From Gottschalkia acidurici 9a (GTDB lineage: Bacteria; Bacillota; Clostridia; Tissierellales; Gottschalkiaceae), in contig NC_018664.1 of assembly GCF_000299355.1 (NCBI RefSeq), positions 655,115-679,114 of the forward strand: a stretch of DNA of 24,000 bases. Reading direction: 5' to 3'. Shown here one piece after another: positions 3,478 to 10,417 of the stretch. The notes under the pieces are model-generated. The model ran no database searches, had not been told where the DNA came from, and saw only the letters and a list, made by a program, of their open reading frames with translations. The position numbers and the translations under genes are program-made. Each line of letters starts with the position of its first letter. The first letter of the stretch is position 1.

Positions 3478-3548
3478 TAAGTGTAAATTTAAATAGTAAT
3501 TTATATTTAGAAAAATTAGAATGAAAAGTTTTTAAAAATATAAAAAAT

Positions 3549-3598
3549 AAAACTCTTTTTCAAATAAAATATAATTTGAGAAGGAGTTTTATTTTTAT
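3549..3598 (+). terminator. Rho-independent terminator after the ABC ATPase gene
   Basis: aaaactctttttcaaat pairs with atttgagaaggagtttt (17-bp stem with two G-U pairs, 3549-3590), followed by atttttat. Confidence 0.55.
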
Positions 3599-3903: not shown

Positions 3904-4145
3904 TAGACATCACCTCATAACTAATAATATTTACACTAATAATATATAGTATAAATCTTTGAAGAGCAAATGTATACATGTAGAGCTCTGTTTACTCTTA
4001 TTTACATAGGGTATATTTTATCCAAGTTAAACTATATAATGATTTATTGTTTTAGAAAATCACAGTTCGTTAAAAAATTGATATTAAAATTAGAATAATA
4101 GCATACTAATATAAGAGTTAAAAATAAATGTAAAGAGGTAGGTGA

Positions 4146-5459
4146 ATGTTTCTCATGAGATCAGTTGAATTTGATTATTCTAATTCTTTAATTAAAGAAC
4201 ATGAGATTGTAGCATTAAAACAACAAATAGATATTATACACGATAATATACATAATAAAGTCGGAATAGGTAATGAATATTTAGGATGGGTAGATTATCC
4301 CATAAACTATGACAAAAAAGAATTTGAAGATATAAAGAGGGTTTCAGAAAAAATAAAGCAAGATTCTGATATTATGATTGTAATAGGGATAGGAGGATCT
4401 TACTTAGGGGCAAGAGCGGTTATAGAATCACTTCAACATTCATTTCATGATTTACTACCAAAAGAAAAAAGTAATAATACTAAAATATTATTTGTAGGAA
4501 ATAACTTAAGCAGCACTTATATTAGTGAACTTATGGAATCTATAGAAGGAAAGGATATAAGTCTAAATGTTATATCTAAATCTGGAACTACTACAGAACC
4601 TGCTATAGCGTTCAGAGTATTAAGAGATTATATGAAAAAAATCTATGGAGATAGAGCTAAAGAGCGAATATATGTTACTACAGATAAAGAGAGTGGAAGT
4701 CTTAGACAGTTAGCAATACAAGAAGGATATCAAACATTTACTATACCAGATGATATTGGAGGTAGATATTCTGTACTAACACCTGTAGGGCTTCTCCCTA
4801 TAGCAGTAGCAGGAGTAGATATAGATAGACTTATGGAAGGTGCATATGATGCTGTAAAGGAATATGAAGAAAAGGACTTACATAAAAATAACTGTTATAA
4901 GTATGCAGCTATTAGAAATATTCTTAATAGAAGAGGTAAGGACATAGAGCTATTAGCAACACATGAATTTTCTTTGCACTTTTTTTCTGAATGGTGGAAG
5001 CAATTATTTGGTGAAACTGAAGGAAAAGACGGAAGAGGGATATTTCCAGCATCTATATGCTACACAACAGACTTACATTCACTTGGTCAATATATACAGG
5101 ACGGAAGAAGAAATATATTTGAAACTTTAATAAATATAGAAAAGCCTAAAAAAGAAATATATATGTTTGAAGATAGTGACAATATAGATGAACTAAACTA
5201 TTTAAGCGGAAAAAGCATAGATTTTATATGTAAAAGAGCAATGGAAGGAACCATAAAAGCCCATGTTTCAGGTGGAGTTCCAAATTTAATTGTAAATGTA
5301 CCTAAAATTGATGAGTATTACATTGGACAACTAATCTACTTTTTTCAGAAATCATGTGCAGTAAGCGGATACCTATTAGGAATAAATCCATTTAATCAAC
5401 CAGGGGTAGAAGAGTATAAGAAAAATATGTTTGACTTACTAGAAAGAGAATACATCTAA
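4146..5459 (+). CDS. pgi: Glucose-6-phosphate isomerase (short Firmicutes type)
   Basis: 437 aa with [20 protein letters not shown] and GGRYSVL motifs. GAGG (4135-4138) lies 7 nt before the ATG at 4146. An in-frame alternative ATG is at 4155. Confidence 0.93.
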
Positions 5460-5488: not shown

Positions 5489-7369
5489 TTGGATAATATA
5501 GAAATAAGAAACTATAAGAAAATGGGAGCACACATACGAACTGAGAACAAGCAGAATGGCGTAAGATTTTCAGTATGGGCTCCTAATGCTAGACAAGTAA
5601 GCGTGGCTGGAGATTTTAATGATTGGAACGGTCGTAAGCATAAAATGATAAAGGACAAAGATACTGGAATGTGGTCACTATTTATACCAGGATTAAAAGA
5701 AGGAGATTTATATAAATATGATATAGAAGATGTAAATGGAAAAAGAGTTTTAAAGTCAGATCCGTATGGATTTCTACATGAAAAAAGACCAAATACAGCT
5801 TCTATAGTATACGACTTATTTGAATATCAATGGAATGATGTAGGGTTCAGAAGAGGAAAAAGAGTAAATAAAATGTATGAAGGACCTATAAATATATATG
5901 AAGTTCATCTAGGATCATGGAAAAGGAAAAAGGACGGAGAATTCATGACTTATAGGGAATTAGCAGATGAACTTGTAGAATATACACTAGACATGGGATA
6001 TACGCACATAGAAATCATGCCTATTATAGAGCACCCATACGATGGATCATGGGGCTATCAAGGTGTCGGATACTATTCAGTGACTAGTAGATACGGTGAA
6101 CCTAGAGATTTTATGTACTTTGTAGATAAGTGTCACCAAGCTGGTATAGGTGTTATATTGGACTGGATACCTGCCCACTTTTGTAAAGACATACATGGAC
6201 TAGCTAAATTTGATGGAACTTGTTTATATGAATATGGAAATCATATGAAAGCTGAAAACTATCAGTGGGGCACACTGAATTTCGATTTAGGAAGAGATGA
6301 GGTTATTAGCTATCTGATATCTAATGCAATATTTTATATAGATGTATTTCATATAGATGGACTAAGGGTAGATGCAGTTAGTAGTATGTTATATTTAGAT
6401 TTTTGTAAAGAGCACGGTCAATGGATACCAAATAGATATGGTGGAAGAGAAAATTTAGAGGCTATTGAATTTATGCGAAAAATGAATGAAACAATATATG
6501 AAAATTATCCTAACACATTTATGATAGCAGAAGAATCCTCAGCATGGCCTTTGGTAAGTAGTCCAACTTATTTAGGAGGGCTAGGATATAACTATAAGTG
6601 GAATATGGGATGGATGAACGACATATTAGAGTATATGGAGAAAGAAACCATACATAGAAAATGGCATCATAATTTGATTACCTTTTCTATTATGTACACG
6701 TACTCTGAAAACTTCATACTACCATTATCTCATGATGAAGTTGTCCACGGTAAGAAATCACTACTAGATAAAATGCCCGGAGACTATTGGCAGAAATTTG
6801 CTAACTTAAGATTACTCTATGGTTATATGATGGGACATCCAGGTAAAAAGTTGTTATTTATGGGTGGAGAATTTGGACAGTTTATAGAGTGGAAATATGA
6901 TGATGAGCTAGATTGGTTTTTACTAGATTATGATATGCATGAGAAAGTTAAAAACTACACTAGGGATTTAAATGCCCTTTACAAAGAGGAAAGATCGTTA
7001 TGGGAATTAGACCATAAGCAAGAGGGATTTGAATGGATAGATCCTAATAACAGTGAACAAAGTATAATCACTTTTATGAGAAAAGGTAAGAAAGAAAGAG
7101 ACTTATTAATTATAGTGTGTAATTTTACTCCTCAGGTATATGAAAAATATAAGATAGGAGTTCCTTTTCTAGGAGAATATCAAGAAGTGTTTAATAGTGA
7201 TTATGAAAAGTATGGAGGCTCGAACTTTATTAACAAAGAAATATTAGTATCAGATAATGCTAAATGGAATAATCAAAAATATTCCTTAGAAATAAATATA
7301 CCACCTCTTGGGGTAGCCTATTTCAAACTAGAGAATTTAATTGAAAAGAGTACGGAAAAAAAGGGGTAA
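5489..7369 (+). CDS. glgB: 1,4-alpha-glucan branching enzyme
   Basis: 626 aa, GH13 branching-enzyme pattern (VWAPNA..V.V.GDFNDW, GYQGVGYY, DWIPAHF, GLRVDAV, IAEES, SHDEVVHGK). TTG start at 5489 lies 29 nt after the pgi stop. The SD spacing is long, so the alternative start ATG 5522 is possible. Confidence 0.93.
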   Translation: MDNIEIRNYKKMGAHIRTENKQNGVRFSVWAPNARQVSVAGDFNDWNGRKHKMIKDKDTGMWSLFIPGLKEGDLYKYDIEDVNGKRVLKSDPYGFLHEKRPNTASIVYDLFEYQWNDVGFRRGKRVNKMYEGPINIYEVHLGSWKRKKDGEFMTYRELADELVEYTLDMGYTHIEIMPIIEHPYDGSWGYQGVGYYSVTSRYGEPRDFMYFVDKCHQAGIGVILDWIPAHFCKDIHGLAKFDGTCLYEYGNHMKAENYQWGTLNFDLGRDEVISYLISNAIFYIDVFHIDGLRVDAVSSMLYLDFCKEHGQWIPNRYGGRENLEAIEFMRKMNETIYENYPNTFMIAEESSAWPLVSSPTYLGGLGYNYKWNMGWMNDILEYMEKETIHRKWHHNLITFSIMYTYSENFILPLSHDEVVHGKKSLLDKMPGDYWQKFANLRLLYGYMMGHPGKKLLFMGGEFGQFIEWKYDDELDWFLLDYDMHEKVKNYTRDLNALYKEERSLWELDHKQEGFEWIDPNNSEQSIITFMRKGKKERDLLIIVCNFTPQVYEKYKIGVPFLGEYQEVFNSDYEKYGGSNFINKEILVSDNAKWNNQKYSLEINIPPLGVAYFKLENLIEKSTEKKG

Positions 7370-7388
7370 GCAACAGTCAAGATAAATA

Positions 7389-7404
7389 TATAAAACTATA
7401 TAAA
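7389..7404. repeat. Left copy of the 16-bp imperfect inverted repeat flanking the IS
   Basis: TATAAAACTATATAAA versus the reverse complement of 9209-9224, TATAAAACTCTATAAA (15/16 identical). Confidence 0.45.
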
Positions 7405-7448
7405 TATTTTAAGTTTATTGTTTGCTATTTATATAGATGGTCATACAA

Positions 7449-7981
7449 ATGAAATATTATTCAATAGGTGAGTTTTCAAAATTAACTGTAAAGGCAGTAT
7501 AGACTTTAAGAAGTTTGGATAATGATGGACAATTAAAGCTACATCATATATCTAAAGGTAGTTTTAGATGATATTCCAAAGAACAACTTAATCATTTTGG
7601 GGGAATTAAAAGAGAAAGACAACTAAATAAAAAGATAATAGGGTATTGTAGAGTCAGCTTTCACGAACAAAAAGATGATTTGGAACGTTAAATTGAAAAT
7701 GTTAAAACATATATGATATCTAATTCAGAAGTTGAAGAGATAGTAATTCTATATAAAGATAGATAATTAAGATTTGACTTTGAAATCATAGAAAATCTAT
7801 GTAATGAGTATGATACTACTATTGAAATTATAGATAATACTGAAAAGATAGAAGAACAGAATTAGTTTAGGATTTAGTTCAAACTGTTACACTCTTTAGT
7901 AAGTTAGAAGGTAAGAAAGTAAATAAAGCAAAGAAAATGATTAAGGAGCTATTAGAGGATGATACTGGCGAAGAAAGTTAG
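7449..7981 (+). pseudogene. tnpA: IS607-type tnpA (MerR-like HTH plus serine recombinase) pseudogene
   Basis: Translation reads MKYYSIGEFSKLTVKAV*TLRSLDNDGQLKLHHISKGSFR*YSKEQL...IIGYCRVSFHEQKDDLER*IENVKTYM..EEIVILYKDR*LRFDFEIIENLCNEYDTTIEIID...EEQ then (frameshift) LV*DLVQTVTLFSKLEGKKVNKAKKMIKELLEDD. Stops are at 7500, 7569, 7689, 7764 and 7868, with a -1 frameshift near 7860. The segment between ERQIE... and ...YKDRL is about 30 codons shorter than expected. Confidence 0.8.
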
Positions 7982-9074
7982 AATTATACCTAATACAGAA
8001 GAAGAACAACAACTTTGGAAATCTGTTGGAACTGCAAGATTTATATATAACTGGACACTTAAAAGACAAGAAGAGAACTATGAAAATGGTGATAAATTTA
8101 TAAGTGATGGAGATTTAAGAAAAGAAATCACTTTAATGAAGCAAACAGAAGAATATAAATGGCTTAAAGGAGTGTCTAACAATATAGCAAAACAGGCAGT
8201 AAAAGATGCTTGTAATGCTTATAAAAGATTCTTTAAAGGATTAGCAGATAAGCCAAGATTTAAAAGCAAAAGAAGAAGCAAGCCATCATTTTATAATGAC
8301 AATGAAAAACTAAAAGTTAAATATAAACAGATTCTTATAGAAAAAGTAGGTTGGATTAAAACATCAGAACAAATACCAATGGATGTTAAGTATACTAATC
8401 CAAGAGTAAGTTTTGATGGGAAGTACTGGTATATATCTGTAGGAATTGAGAAAAAATATCCCAAAATAGAATTGACTGGTGAAAGCATAGGTATAGATGT
8501 TGGAATTAAAGATCTTGCCATATGCTCTAATGGAATGGTTTTTAAAAATATTAATAAAACAAGGTTAGTAAAGAAATTAGAAAAAAGATTACGTAGGTTG
8601 CAACGTAAAGTATCAAGAAAGTATGAATTAAATAAAGAAGGGAGGAAGTTCGTCAAAACAAGCAACATTATAAAACTTGAAAAGCAAATTAGATTACTTC
8701 ATAGAAAGTTATCTAATATTAGAAACAACCACTTACACCAGGCAACTACTAAGATAGTGAAAACCAAGCCATCAAGAGTAGTAATGGAAACACTTAATAT
8801 AAAAGGAATGATGAAGAATAAACATTTATCAAAAGCTATAGCCAAACAAGGGTTGTATGAGTTTAAAAGACAACTTCAATATAAATGTGAATACTATGGG
8901 ATTGAATTTATTGAAGCTGATAAATGGTATCCATCATCAAAGACATGTAGTGAGTGTGGTCATTTGAAAGCTAAATTATCACTATCAGAAAGAACCTATA
9001 TCTGTGAAGAATGTAAAACTATAATAGATAGAGATTTAAATGCATCAATTAATTTAAGCAGATATTCAGCATAA
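7959..9074 (+). CDS. tnpB: TnpB (OrfB) RNA-guided endonuclease-family protein, apparently intact
   Basis: 371 aa with no lesions. RuvC-I is IGIDVGIKDLA (D180, 8496-8498), RuvC-II is VVMETLNIKGM (E277, 8787-8789), RuvC-III is IIDRDLNASINL (D359, 9033-9035), and the zinc finger is CSECG...CEEC (C330/C333/C349/C352). GGAG lies 10 nt upstream of the ATG. Confidence 0.93.
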   Translation: MILAKKVRIIPNTEEEQQLWKSVGTARFIYNWTLKRQEENYENGDKFISDGDLRKEITLMKQTEEYKWLKGVSNNIAKQAVKDACNAYKRFFKGLADKPRFKSKRRSKPSFYNDNEKLKVKYKQILIEKVGWIKTSEQIPMDVKYTNPRVSFDGKYWYISVGIEKKYPKIELTGESIGIDVGIKDLAICSNGMVFKNINKTRLVKKLEKRLRRLQRKVSRKYELNKEGRKFVKTSNIIKLEKQIRLLHRKLSNIRNNHLHQATTKIVKTKPSRVVMETLNIKGMMKNKHLSKAIAKQGLYEFKRQLQYKCEYYGIEFIEADKWYPSSKTCSECGHLKAKLSLSERTYICEECKTIIDRDLNASINLSRYSA

Positions 9075-9244
9075 CTACTAAAACAGTTATGTTTGAGGTG
9101 TAGGAAACGTTGTATCCGAAGTTAAGCCCTCGGAGTGTTATATCAAACGAAAGTAGTAGGTTCTTAGAACTATAAAATCGGACATAATGAACAGGGAATT
9201 AAACAAGCTTTATAGAGTTTTATAAGGTTTTGGCAACGGGATAT
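9075..9244 (+). ncRNA. Candidate omegaRNA (reRNA) scaffold plus guide at the IS right end; the 5' boundary is unknown and may lie inside the tnpB 3' end
   Basis: There are 155 nt of non-coding DNA directly 3' of tnpB, where TnpB guide RNAs are encoded. Visible local stems include 9075-9103 (ctac/gtag plus aaac/gttt) and 9115-9134 (tccga..tcgga around agttaagccc). There is possible long-range pairing of ctacta (9075-9080) with tagtag (9153-9158). No covariance evidence is available. Confidence 0.35.
9209..9224. repeat. Right copy of the 16-bp imperfect inverted repeat flanking the IS
   Basis: TTTATAGAGTTTTATA is the reverse complement of 7389-7404 with one mismatch. Confidence 0.45.
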
Positions 9245-9247
9245 TTA

Positions 9248-10417
9248 ATGGAAACTAAAAAGAAAGAGTGCATAGCAATGATACTGGCAGGGGGACAAGG
9301 AAGTAGGCTAGGAACTCTAACTAAGAACTTAGCTAAACCAGCAGTACCATTTGGCGGTAAATATAGAATAATAGACTTTACACTTAGTAACTGCAGTAAT
9401 TCAGGAATTGATACAGTTGGAATCTTAACACAGTATCAGCCACTTATACTAAATAGTCATATAGGGATAGGTAGACCATGGGACTTAGATAGACGTAAAG
9501 AAGGTGTTACACTATTACCACCATATGTAGACGGTAAAGGTGGGGAGTGGTACAAGGGAACAGCGAATGCTATATATCAAAATATATATTATATAGATCA
9601 GATAAAACCTGAATATGTGATTGTATTATCTGGAGATCATATATACAAAATGAATTATTCAGAAATGATAAATTATCATAAGGAAAGTAATGCAGATGCT
9701 ACTATAAGTGTAATAGAGGTTCCTTTAGACGAAGCAAGTAGGTTCGGAATTATGAATACCGATAACAACGATAAAATATATGAATTTGAAGAAAAACCTA
9801 AAGAGCCTAAAAATAATTTAGCATCTATGGGAATATACATATTCAACTGGGATGTACTAAGGCAGTATCTAATAGAAGATGAAAATAACAGCAATTCAAG
9901 TCATGACTTTGGAAAAGATATAATACCTAAGATGGTTAGTGACGGAAAAGAAATCTATGCATATAGGTTCAAAGGATATTGGAAAGATGTCGGAACTATA
10001 GAAAGCTTCTGGGAAGCTAATATGGACTTACTATCTGAGATGCCTGAGTTGAGCTTATATGAAAGTAATTGGAAAATATACTCTGAGAACACAAACTACC
10101 CCCCAAGTCATATAGCCGTAGAGAGCGAAGTGAATAGTTCACTGATAAATGAAGGATGTTCAGTTTCAGGTAAAGTAAAAAACTCTATTCTTTTTCAGGG
10201 AGTTAGTATTGGAAGAAACTCTGTGATAAAGGATTCTTTAATATTTCCGAATGTAGAAATAGGTGATAACGTGACTATAGAGAAAGCTATAATAGGAGAA
10301 AATAGTAAAATTTATGATGGAAAGAAAATTGGACAAAAATACAATGACTATAAAGAGACTAGCTATGAAATATCACAAAGTGGAATATTAGTAATAGGAG
10401 AAAATAGTATCATATAG
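9248..10417 (+). CDS. glgC: Glucose-1-phosphate adenylyltransferase, catalytic subunit
   Basis: [41 protein letters not shown] is the canonical GlgC N-terminus. The ATG at 9248 is preferred over the track's TTG at 9230, which would reach into the IS right flank. The SD is only weak (GGGA 9238-9241). Confidence 0.92.

Follow-up and report, generated by a model that had tools for sequence, protein, structure and literature searches.

An ISCbo6-like IS607 insertion with a decayed tnpA and a conserved tnpB at the glgC Shine-Dalgarno sequence of Gottschalkia acidurici 9a

The glycogen operon of Gottschalkia acidurici 9a is interrupted by DNA that is very probably an old, no longer autonomous ISCbo6-like insertion of the IS607 family, carrying a functional-looking TnpB and a RAGATH-18-type guide RNA. 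The features are listed in Table 1; positions refer to the window, that is, the whole stretch of 24,000 nucleotides analysed here (contig NC_018664.1, 655,115 to 679,114, forward strand). The glgB stop codon is separated from the glgC ATG (9248) by 1,878 nt, compared with a spacing of -28 to 31 nt elsewhere in the row pgi-glgB-glgC-glgD-glgA-glgP-amylase. The paper describing the G. acidurici genome mentions 21 transposase genes, and the glg locus and glycogen are absent from its text (PMC3519856). What the locus yields is the exact ends of the element, a glgB stop codon that derives from it, and a tnpB and guide RNA that have outlived their transposase.

Table 1. Features of the glgB-glgC region of G. 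acidurici 9a, in window coordinates.
Feature	Position	Strand	Basis
glgB (1,4-alpha-glucan branching enzyme)	5489..7369	+	Pfam CBM_48, Alpha-amylase, Alpha-amylase_C
Left flank AGGGG, former glgC Shine-Dalgarno sequence, TAM-like motif	7362..7366	+	42 related loci
ISCbo6-like IS607-family insertion sequence, 1,873 bp	7367..9239	+, sense to operon	homology, empty sites
Left end and tnpA leader, decayed, holding the subterminal motif 7389-7404	7367..7448	+	60% identity to L001
tnpA pseudogene, MerR-like HTH and serine recombinase	7449..7981	+	codon comparison with the intact L001 tnpA
tnpB, intact, 371 aa, RNA-guided RuvC nuclease family	7959..9074	+	Pfam, PDB, conserved residues
reRNA/ωRNA scaffold	9075..9239	+	Rfam RF03064 match, covariation; ends exactly at the right end
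Predicted 20-nt guide GATATTTAATGGAAACTAAA, in the glgC translation-initiation region	9240..9259	+	first non-conserved sequence past the scaffold
glgC, intact, with weakened ribosome-binding site	9248..10417	+	P0121, 100% identical, 389 aa

The insertion and its boundaries

A sequence-only reading of this DNA had proposed an IS607-family element inserted in the glycogen operon and co-oriented with it, and had suggested a search for empty glgB-glgC junctions in related genomes. Such junctions are present in three sets of relatives, namely G. purinilytica and two metagenomic lineages (loci L081 and L082-L087), so that the insertion site is polymorphic for presence and absence of the element. In all the relatives examined, the glgB stop and the glgC start are 4 nt apart, 11 nt apart, or overlapping. 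Because the junction is empty in these relatives, the segment is an insertion, as proposed.

The assignment to IS607 also stands, and is based on a serine-recombinase tnpA remnant, on matches of the downstream gene to TnpB profiles, and on similarity over the whole element. Annotated IS607/ISCbo6 elements on plasmids of Clostridium and Bacillus are approximately 72–78% identical to the element in DNA sequence, over 96–100% of the query, and homology along its entire length also extends to mobile IS607 copies in phages, on plasmids and on the chromosomes of many genera. The tnpA remnant lies 5' of tnpB, with its 3' end overlapping the tnpB start. Both are on the + strand, as are the glg genes, which agrees with the proposed co-orientation.

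The right end falls at 9239 in dozens of independent alignments, and alignment of left ends places the left boundary at 7366|7367, so that the element begins at 7367. The right end, TTTTGGCAACGG, is an exact match to the family, and the left-end core, AACAGTCAA, matches at all positions but one. The ends had previously been placed at 7389 and 9224, which is incorrect: a 16-nt inverted repeat (7389-7404 / 9209-9224) is found there, but homology extends beyond it on both sides, and the repeat is subterminal rather than terminal. The related claim that everything between glgB and glgC is foreign to the operon holds for 7370-9239, but not for 9240-9247, which is original operon DNA.

A GG dinucleotide is found at both junctions, at 7365-7366 in the flank and at 9238-9239 in the right end, and nothing further is repeated. 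The crossover dinucleotide is thus the GG at 7365-7366, and there is no target-site duplication; the same pattern is seen in 42 related loci, and IS607 is reported to need a GG dinucleotide (bioRxiv 10.1101/2023.11.20.567912). In these 42 loci the five nucleotides 5' of the left end are all purines and end in GG, the motifs including GAGGG (11 loci), GGAGG (10) and AGGGG (7). The reconstructed empty site in G. acidurici is AGGGG|GATATTT. Its motif therefore occurs elsewhere in the family, but differs from both published TAMs of RAGATH-18-type IS607 TnpBs, AGGAG and GAGGG (PMC11061315). The element's point of entry was the GG in the Shine-Dalgarno sequence of glgC; this is where the family usually inserts, and it coincides with the stretch that corresponds to the TnpB TAM.

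A dead tnpA and a maintained tnpB

The tnpA remnant is matched by intact TnpA in a tblastn search with an E value of 1.5e-55, over positions 7449-7978. Compared to the intact gene of C. carboxidivorans P7 (locus L001), it has five in-frame stops, a 90-nt (30-codon) deletion at 7712, a 1-nt deletion at 7858 that shifts the frame, and a 3-nt deletion at 7898. The left end has also decayed, being 60% identical to that of L001, compared with approximately 80–86% for closely related intact elements (54–86% overall). When L001 TnpA was used as query, no G. acidurici protein was found among the best 120 of 7,929 matches. We infer that the copy at the glg locus is unable to move by itself. Given the degraded left end, mobilisation by a transposase supplied in trans has probably been lost as well.

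By contrast, and as the sequence-only reading had it, tnpB is an intact gene, with an open reading frame of 371 codons without stops. The protein (100% identical to AFS77670.1) matches the OrfB_IS605/TnpB profiles, as expected of a TnpB (HTH_OrfB_IS605, OrfB_IS605 and Cas12f1-like_TNB; PF12323, PF01385 and PF07282), as well as solved TnpB structures: phmmer finds the ISFba1 IS607 TnpB (PDB 8IAZ) with E 1.7e-76, ISDra2 TnpB is also matched, and the alignments to 8IAZ and 8EXA are full-length. It keeps the RuvC triad D180/E277/D359 and the zinc finger C330/C333/C349/C352, and the triad is invariant in all four G. acidurici TnpB paralogues, compared as proteins; the other three are AFS77230, AFS78714 and AFS79310. 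This TnpB is therefore a functional-looking nuclease, predicted from its sequence to carry out RNA-guided, TAM-dependent cleavage of double-stranded DNA.

The different parts of the element have evolved at very different rates. On the branch leading to this copy, the number of changes per site is 0.317 in the left end, 0.282 in the N-terminal part of tnpA and 0.105 in its C-terminal part, but only 0.065 in tnpB and 0.061 in the RNA region. For tnpB on this branch pS is 0.146 and pN is 0.037, giving ω≈0.25. There are five stops in 176 codons of tnpA and none in 371 of tnpB (P = 2.7e-5), where approximately 10 would be expected at the tnpA rate. Among 43 homologues, TnpB has a single private change at an otherwise invariant site, which is no excess. 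These comparisons indicate that tnpB and the guide-RNA scaffold remained under purifying selection while tnpA and the left end decayed. The ω of tnpB exceeds the value for the sister branch twofold (0.25 vs 0.12), a non-significant difference (Fisher p = 0.089), and tnpB may have been freed from selection recently.

The earlier description of this TnpB as stranded yet preserved is therefore accurate, but the state is a known and common one in the IS607 family, in which tnpB often outlives the transposase: 30% of the partner tnpA genes of IS607 TnpB systems are pseudogenes (Ren et al. 2024, PMC11061315).

The guide RNA

The RAGATH-18 core (9127-9198) begins 53 nt 3' of the tnpB stop, on the same strand, and matches the full-length RF03064 model with 68.3 bits (gathering score 44.9; E 6.6e-13). 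The motif recurs in 11 of the 12 relatives tested. Other parts of the scaffold are a long-range helix pairing 9108-9113 with 9233-9238, the subterminal palindrome at 9209-9224, and the GG core end. Folding of the single sequence was uninformative (z = 0.01), and covariation was therefore used. An alignment of 44 scaffold sequences has 25 consensus pairs, of which 13 show compensatory changes. The scaffold at the glg locus departs from the ≥90% consensus at only two positions, and retains all 44 positions that are invariant in the family.

With the published guide length of 20 nt (PMC11061315), the predicted guide starts directly after the scaffold, and its only perfect match in the window is its own site. 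At this occupied site the TAM position reads AACGG, and binding of DNA by TnpB is therefore not expected. Cleavage by TnpB and its guide would be expected only at a glgB-glgC allele that lacks the insertion and has the AGGGG motif, which would make the pair a selfish retention or homing device, and not a host regulator. It is uncertain whether homing would work at the glg site, because AGGGG is not a published TAM and cleavage by the ISFba1 system is lost when single positions of its TAM are changed (PMC11061315).

Consequences for glgB, glgC and their transcription

The insertion has altered both neighbouring genes. The glgB stop codon, TAA (7367-7369), consists of the first three bases of the element and comes two codons early; the reconstructed ancestral GlgB ends in ...EKKGDI*, its stop overlapping the glgC start as TAATG, an arrangement also seen in the relative L085. 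At the other end, the glgC ATG is now preceded by the right end of the element, and its predicted Shine-Dalgarno pairing is much weaker: the duplex with the anti-Shine-Dalgarno sequence has an energy of -4.1 kcal/mol, compared to -11.3 for the reconstructed site and -11.1 to -12.1 in relatives. On the basis of these calculated energies, displacement of the ribosome-binding site probably makes the translation of GlgC less efficient in G. acidurici 9a. An in-frame TTG at 9230 was considered as an alternative glgC start, but was rejected, as the annotated protein and all the homologues begin at the ATG.

No terminator-like sites were found on the + strand within the element, and the downstream open reading frames are intact. 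It is thus plausible from the sequence that operon transcription reads through the element. A promoter scan gave fewer promoter-like sites than shuffled controls (22 vs 38.7), and we therefore do not claim an internal promoter.

Taken together, an IS607 element entered the Shine-Dalgarno sequence of glgC at its GG and in the sense orientation, its first bases giving glgB a new stop and its right end now preceding the glgC start. The tnpA gene and the left end have decayed, while selection kept tnpB and the scaffold. Today tnpB, the guide RNA and glgC-glgP would all be transcribed from the operon promoter by read-through.

Shine-Dalgarno sequences as the target of the family

The geometry seen at the glg locus is general. 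Of 77 related loci, 59 have a co-oriented gene whose start lies 4–15 nt past the right end, as against 12.5% at random positions, and the median Shine-Dalgarno energy across related loci goes from -10.7 to -3.5 kcal/mol upon insertion. The purine-rich left flanks ending in GG agree with the published TAM (PMC11061315), which is in effect a Shine-Dalgarno sequence. An element with such a target is bound to lie in sense with the gene that follows, and its co-orientation with the glycogen operon is therefore not special. The genomic outcome is sense insertion immediately 5' of start codons at about three quarters of loci. A literature search found no paper stating this consequence of Shine-Dalgarno targeting. 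It bears on the perturbation of host operons, on guide-RNA transcription, and on the annotation of 'orphan' RAGATH-18 RNAs in 5' UTRs.

Alternative explanations

There is a negligible probability that the 1.9 kb belongs to the operon as a conserved, immobile segment, since this is refuted both by the empty junctions in all relatives examined and by the end-to-end homology to mobile elements. Two other explanations concern the history of the element. It could be decaying neutrally as a whole, tnpB being intact merely for lack of time. The ω of tnpB, which exceeds that of the sister branch, is in the direction that this would predict, and would fit a mixed history in which roughly the last 15% of the branch was neutral. 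However, stops, a large deletion and a frameshift have accumulated in the adjoining tnpA but not in tnpB, pN in tnpB is far below pS on its own branch, and the near absence of private changes in TnpB and the complete set of invariant scaffold positions also argue for constraint; we consider neutral decay of the whole element quite unlikely. The other explanation is that the element is a chimera, whose 5' third (7367-7710) came from a more divergent IS607 and was joined by recombination at 7711/7712 to a module of tnpA 3' end, tnpB and RNA. This would account for a rate of 0.28–0.32 per site in 7367-7710 against 0.105 in 7711-7958, the former being higher even than the pS of tnpB, and many BLAST alignments do start exactly at 7711-7713. 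The break is however the site of the 90-nt deletion, which splits BLAST alignments by itself, the 5' part has the stops and degraded motifs that decay predicts, and no retrieved locus is closer to the 5' part than to the 3' part. Moreover, non-synonymous G/C sites released from constraint in an AT-rich genome could outpace synonymous sites. A chimera is therefore improbable.

The suggestion in the sequence-only reading that TnpB might have been repurposed is unsupported, since TnpB retains all three catalytic residues and its guide is no more than flanking DNA. In its fuller form, host co-option would have TnpB and the guide RNA tune glgC-glgP, either at the level of RNA or by TldR-like binding to DNA. 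It is true that the guide spans the glgC ATG, that the Shine-Dalgarno sequence is displaced, and that tnpB has been maintained without a transposase in cis; there is also a precedent, in that TnpB-ωRNA binding interferes with splicing of an IStron on the same transcript (bioRxiv 10.1101/2023.11.20.567912). But a TldR would be expected to have lost the triad, a plain flank serves as guide in every copy of the family, the occupied site has AACGG where a TAM would be needed, and the same geometry recurs at unrelated genes, which marks it as inherent to the element rather than as an adaptation of the glg operon. Co-option is thus very unlikely. A further idea is that each copy, because it inserts in sense between a Shine-Dalgarno sequence and a start codon, fuses its scaffold to a host translation-initiation region. 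TnpB made from the glg transcript could then bind and process that same transcript, occlude the glgC start and control glgC-glgP expression. We regard this as a long shot; if true, TnpB-dependent control of glgC-glgP (or relief from it) could explain selection on tnpB after the death of the transposase. A selfish insertion whose nuclease and guide RNA have outlasted its transposase remains the reading that we prefer.

Comparison with known systems

The TnpB and reRNA of the glg locus belong to a known kind, the RAGATH-18 IS607 TnpB systems described by Ren et al. (Cell Res 2024, PMC11061315). Shared features are the IS607 context with a tnpA that is often a pseudogene, a TnpB of approximately 370–390 aa with the RuvC D-E-D triad and zinc finger, a scaffold with full RAGATH-18 just past the tnpB stop, a guide taken from the right flank, and a purine-rich, Shine-Dalgarno-like motif at the expected TAM position. 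The flank motif differs, being AGGGG here rather than AGGAG or GAGGG. With respect to ISFba1 in particular, the TnpB is a distant homologue, although alignable over its full length, and the scaffold has a shorter 3' flank, of 41 nt here as against 64 nt.

A second comparison is with ISCbo6-related elements, for example NC_015417.1 3796-5533 and locus L001 of C. carboxidivorans P7. These have the same gene order of tnpA overlapping tnpB, the same left-end core (AACAGTTAA) and the same right end, and tnpB DNA identity among the ISCbo6-like elements compared is 74–88%. They differ in having an intact tnpA of 208 aa and conserved left ends.

The GG core dinucleotide also fits the IS607 peel-and-paste/homing model (Žedaveinytė et al., bioRxiv 10.1101/2023.11.20.567912), in which the TAM is also the target motif of the transposase and TnpB cuts the emptied donor joint, restoring the element. 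The target motif is however TGGG in that system and in IStrons, and RRRGG/Shine-Dalgarno-like here, and no excision of the glg copy is expected, because its tnpA is dead. The element was also considered as an IStron, with a group I intron at its 5' end, and this was rejected: an Rfam scan of 7000-9600 (E ≤ 1) gave only RAGATH-18, and the left end is only 82 nt from the tnpA ATG.

Finally, there is a resemblance to TldRs (bioRxiv 10.1101/2023.11.30.569447), in that a tnpB-family gene without a working transposase adjoins the 5' region of a host gene that matches its guide. In TldRs the RuvC catalytic residues have been lost and the guides target promoters next to a TAM. At the glg locus the triad is intact, the guide is an unmodified insertion flank, and the occupied site is without a TAM. 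Domestication of the TldR type is accordingly rejected, the triad being invariant in the four G. acidurici paralogues as well.

Position and boundaries of the element

The stretch is AT-rich (about 30% GC). Genes of the pgi-glg row are spaced by -28 to 31 nt, the sole exception being glgB and glgC, which are 1,878 nt apart. The GlgC encoded here is 100% identical to P0121, the annotated 389-residue GlgC of Gottschalkia (Clostridium) acidurici 9a.

Features of the glycogen gene row and of the element (window coordinates)
Feature	Position	Strand	Remarks
pgi	4146-5459	+	first gene of co-directional row
glgB	5489-7369	+	second gene of row
tnpB	7959-9074	+	371-aa ORF, three TnpB domains
RAGATH-18 RNA	9127-9198	+	Rfam, 68.3 bits
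glgC	9248-10417	+	third gene of row; followed by glgD, glgA, glgP and an alpha-amylase-family gene, all co-directional

The closest available GlgC relatives were traced to their contigs. In G. purinilytica the glgB stop and the glgC start are 4 nt apart; the junction is 11 nt in one metagenomic lineage, and in another the two genes overlap as TAATG. This comparison shows that the interval is an insertion, as a sequence-only reading had claimed, and supplies the empty junctions that it had proposed to look for.

To place the ends, the element was compared by BLAST with 90 loci. Dozens of independent alignments stop at 9239, and in a multiple alignment the right end is near-invariant (...TTTTGGCAACGG), with the flanks diverging beyond it. 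At the left end there is a conserved core AACAGT(T/C)AA, located 4-6 nt 3' of a purine run ending in GG, and this spacing puts the boundary between 7366 and 7367. The element thus spans 7367-9239 (1,873 bp). It has GG at both junctions and no further duplication, which matches the IS607 serine-recombinase mechanism with its GG core (bioRxiv 10.1101/2023.11.20.567912). The earlier placement of the ends at 7389 and 9224, probably taken from a 16-nt inverted repeat (7389-7404/9209-9224), has to be revised, as that repeat is a subterminal motif.

Since the element starts at 7367, its first three bases supply the TAA stop codon of glgB (7367-7369). Joining 7366 to 9240 rebuilds the empty site, GAAAAAAAGGGG followed by GATATTTAATGG, in which the glgB product ends in ...KGDI and the stop codon and the glgC ATG overlap, the same arrangement as in the relative L085.

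Two further features of the gene row were noted. A strong terminator-like hairpin (20 pairs and a T run, 3546-3593) lies 3' of the ABC-ATPase gene, and therefore the pgi-glg transcription unit probably begins within the intergenic region 3904-4145. In the metagenomic relative L084 (7170-8478) the stretch from glgC to glgA lacks a called glgD and exceeds that of the near-identical sisters L082 and L083 by 155 nt; a disrupted glgD or a small insertion might explain this.

Family identity

The tnpB ORF matches the profiles HTH_OrfB_IS605, OrfB_IS605 and Cas12f1-like_TNB, and its product is 100% identical to AFS77670.1 of G. acidurici 9a. Its best match among solved structures is 8IAZ, the ISFba1 IS607 TnpB-reRNA-DNA complex (E 1.7e-76), followed by ISDra2 TnpB. 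On the same strand, 5' of tnpB, is an IS607 TnpA frame (a MerR-like HTH, then IGYCRVS.HEQKDDLER) with stop codons inside. The whole element is about 72-78% identical, over 96-100% of its length, to plasmid copies annotated as 'IS607-like element ISCbo6 family transposase' and 'RNA-guided endonuclease TnpB'. Together these results uphold the original assignment to IS607, and with it the expectation that the ORF would match TnpB profiles. The RAGATH-18 RNA is full-length, scores well beyond the Rfam gathering score of 44.9 bits, and was also detected in 11 of the 12 relatives examined. Ren et al. 2024 (PMC11061315) showed that the guide RNA (reRNA) of IS607 TnpBs is built around RAGATH-18, with a scaffold that begins 13 nt past the tnpB stop and a 20-nt guide after it.

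Insertion at ribosome-binding sites

Both ends could be placed in 42 loci, where the 5 nt immediately 5' of the element are GAGGG (11), GGAGG (10), AGGGG (7, the window among them), AGAGG (4), GGGGG (4) or similar. These motifs are Shine-Dalgarno (SD) sequences. Past the right end, a co-oriented ORF (50 aa or longer) begins within 4-15 nt in 59 of 77 usable loci, compared to 12.5% at random positions, and in 43 of the 59 the start lies at +6 to +8. Examples of the pattern, which was drawn from loci L001-L080 and L088-L090, are the right end at L001:5272-5283 and the left flank at L009:3270-3285. The flanks and ORF starts show that the insertion point of this IS607 subfamily lies between the SD of a host gene and its start codon; since the target motif is specific to one strand, the element comes to lie in sense orientation to the downstream gene. 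The co-orientation with the operon remarked on earlier is accounted for in this way. Insertion at SD-like motifs agrees with the reported TAM, 5'-AGGAG in 18 of 22 strains and 5'-GAGGG in 4 (PMC11061315). Our literature search found no paper stating sense-oriented insertion between SD and start codon as a consequence for the family.

Insertion weakens the predicted SD:anti-SD pairing: the median over 31 loci goes from -10.7 to -3.5 kcal/mol, and the glgC value from -11.3 to -4.1 kcal/mol. The values are -11.1 to -12.1 for glgC of relatives and -9.9 to -11.8 for glgB, glgD and glgA here.

Decay of tnpA and retention of tnpB

The nearest relative, L001 of C. carboxidivorans, has an intact tnpA and was used as the reference, and changes were assigned to the window branch by polarising differences with outgroups.

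Divergence along the element
Region	Identity to L001	Window-branch changes per site
Left end	60%	0.317
tnpA	77%	
tnpA N-part (5')		0.282
tnpA C-part (3', 7711-7958)		0.105
tnpB	88.5%	0.065
RNA region	91.5%	0.061

Codon by codon, the window tnpA has five in-frame stops, a 1-nt frameshift and deletions of 3 nt and 90 nt, the larger of which takes 30 codons out of the catalytic domain. In intact elements conservation is higher for tnpA (81-92%) than for tnpB (75-86%); the window shows the reverse order. The slower 3' part of the remnant is also the part kept by some tnpA-truncated relatives such as L090, and may carry signals required for tnpB expression.

On the window branch tnpB has 32 synonymous and 33 non-synonymous changes (pS 0.146, pN 0.037, ω 0.25). 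At the tnpA stop rate about 10 stops would be expected, and none is observed (P = 2.7e-5). TnpB retains D180, E277, D359 and the four zinc-finger cysteines, and of the sites otherwise invariant among 43 homologues it alone differs at one (Q15E). In a 44-sequence alignment the reRNA scaffold has 25 consensus pairs, 13 of them with compensatory changes, and against the ≥90% consensus the window has two differences, of which one is G·U-compatible. A long-range helix (CGTTGT:GCAACG, 9108-9113 with 9233-9238) joins the scaffold 5' flank to the final bases of the right end, so that one constrained sequence serves as both transposon end and 3' end of the RNA; both strands are invariant, and hence no covariation is seen.

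The rate contrast, the stop counts and the intact residues and scaffold argue that purifying selection acted on tnpB and the RNA during most, if not all, of the period in which tnpA and the left end decayed. Pure neutral decay of the element is disfavoured by the low pN, the lack of stops and the lone Q15E. The sister branch has ω 0.12, a difference that is not significant (p = 0.089), and tnpB may recently have been released from selection. A chimeric origin of the 5' third is possible and would account for its very high divergence, but is not required. The description of a TnpB stranded beside a dead tnpA yet preserved is therefore sound.

The suggestion of a repurposed TnpB fared less well. 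There is no support for domestication as a TldR-like regulator: the nuclease triad, in whose retention the window TnpB differs from TldR, is intact here and in three paralogues, and the family as a whole has this guide geometry. It is possible that TnpB binding interferes with glgC translation at the RNA level.

We favour a selfish retention or homing role for TnpB and its guide, as demonstrated for IS607 TnpB (bioRxiv 10.1101/2023.11.20.567912). The copy would be fixed in place, because tnpA is dead and the left end degraded. No terminator-like site was found on the + strand within the element, and glgC-glgP are intact ORFs downstream; read-through from the operon promoter would thus most simply account for the tnpB mRNA, the guide RNA and expression of the genes downstream. 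The guide is predicted to be 9240-9259 (GATATTTAATGGAAACTAAA); it spans the glgC ATG and has no perfect match elsewhere in the window. At the occupied site the TAM position reads AACGG, and self-cleavage is not expected. With AGGGG as putative TAM, the RNP would target only the unoccupied glgB-glgC allele.

Other copies and derivatives

In G. acidurici 9a the subfamily has four 371-aa TnpBs, AFS77670 and its full-length paralogues AFS77230.1, AFS78714.1 and AFS79310.1 (about 88-89% identical to the window TnpB), all retaining the catalytic residues. Three of the four (P0001, P0002 and P0003) are 88-89% identical pairwise; AFS78714 matches the window TnpB at 89% identity and falls into one 90%-identity cluster with AFS79310. 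No G. acidurici TnpA is among the best 120 of 7,929 TnpA matches.

Twelve short derivatives (L014, L016, L031, L032, L046, L052, L057, L063, L069, L071, L074 and L078) have 79-310 nt between left end and tnpB. Their tnpA is cleanly deleted, with a well-conserved left end, tnpB, RNA and right end, and they are probably non-autonomous copies mobilisable in trans, whereas in the window tnpA and the left end have decayed in place. The 468-aa database protein P0009 is 86% identical to the window TnpB and combines a resolvase domain (PF00239) with all three TnpB domains in one chain; either tnpA and tnpB are fused there by read-through, or the gene was called wrongly. Many phages, virulent as well as temperate, also have the tnpB and RNA portion of the element family in their genomes (H21-H40) at 64-72% DNA identity, in most cases lacking the tnpA portion; examples are Staphylococcus phage Twort, Bacillus phages 250 and IEBH, and Fusobacterium phage Fnu1.

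Comparison with known systems

The finding of the sequence-only reading is real and its interpretation correct. What is added here is the base-level anatomy of the element, evidence of long-term selection on tnpB and the RNA after tnpA loss, and a family-wide pattern of insertion at ribosome-binding sites. The locus itself is ordinary. IS607 elements with TnpB and RAGATH-18 reRNA are well characterised, and the tnpA-dead state is already reported to be common: tnpA is present in 80% of loci, and in 30% of those it is a pseudogene (Ren et al. 2024, PMC11061315). The window fits that description.
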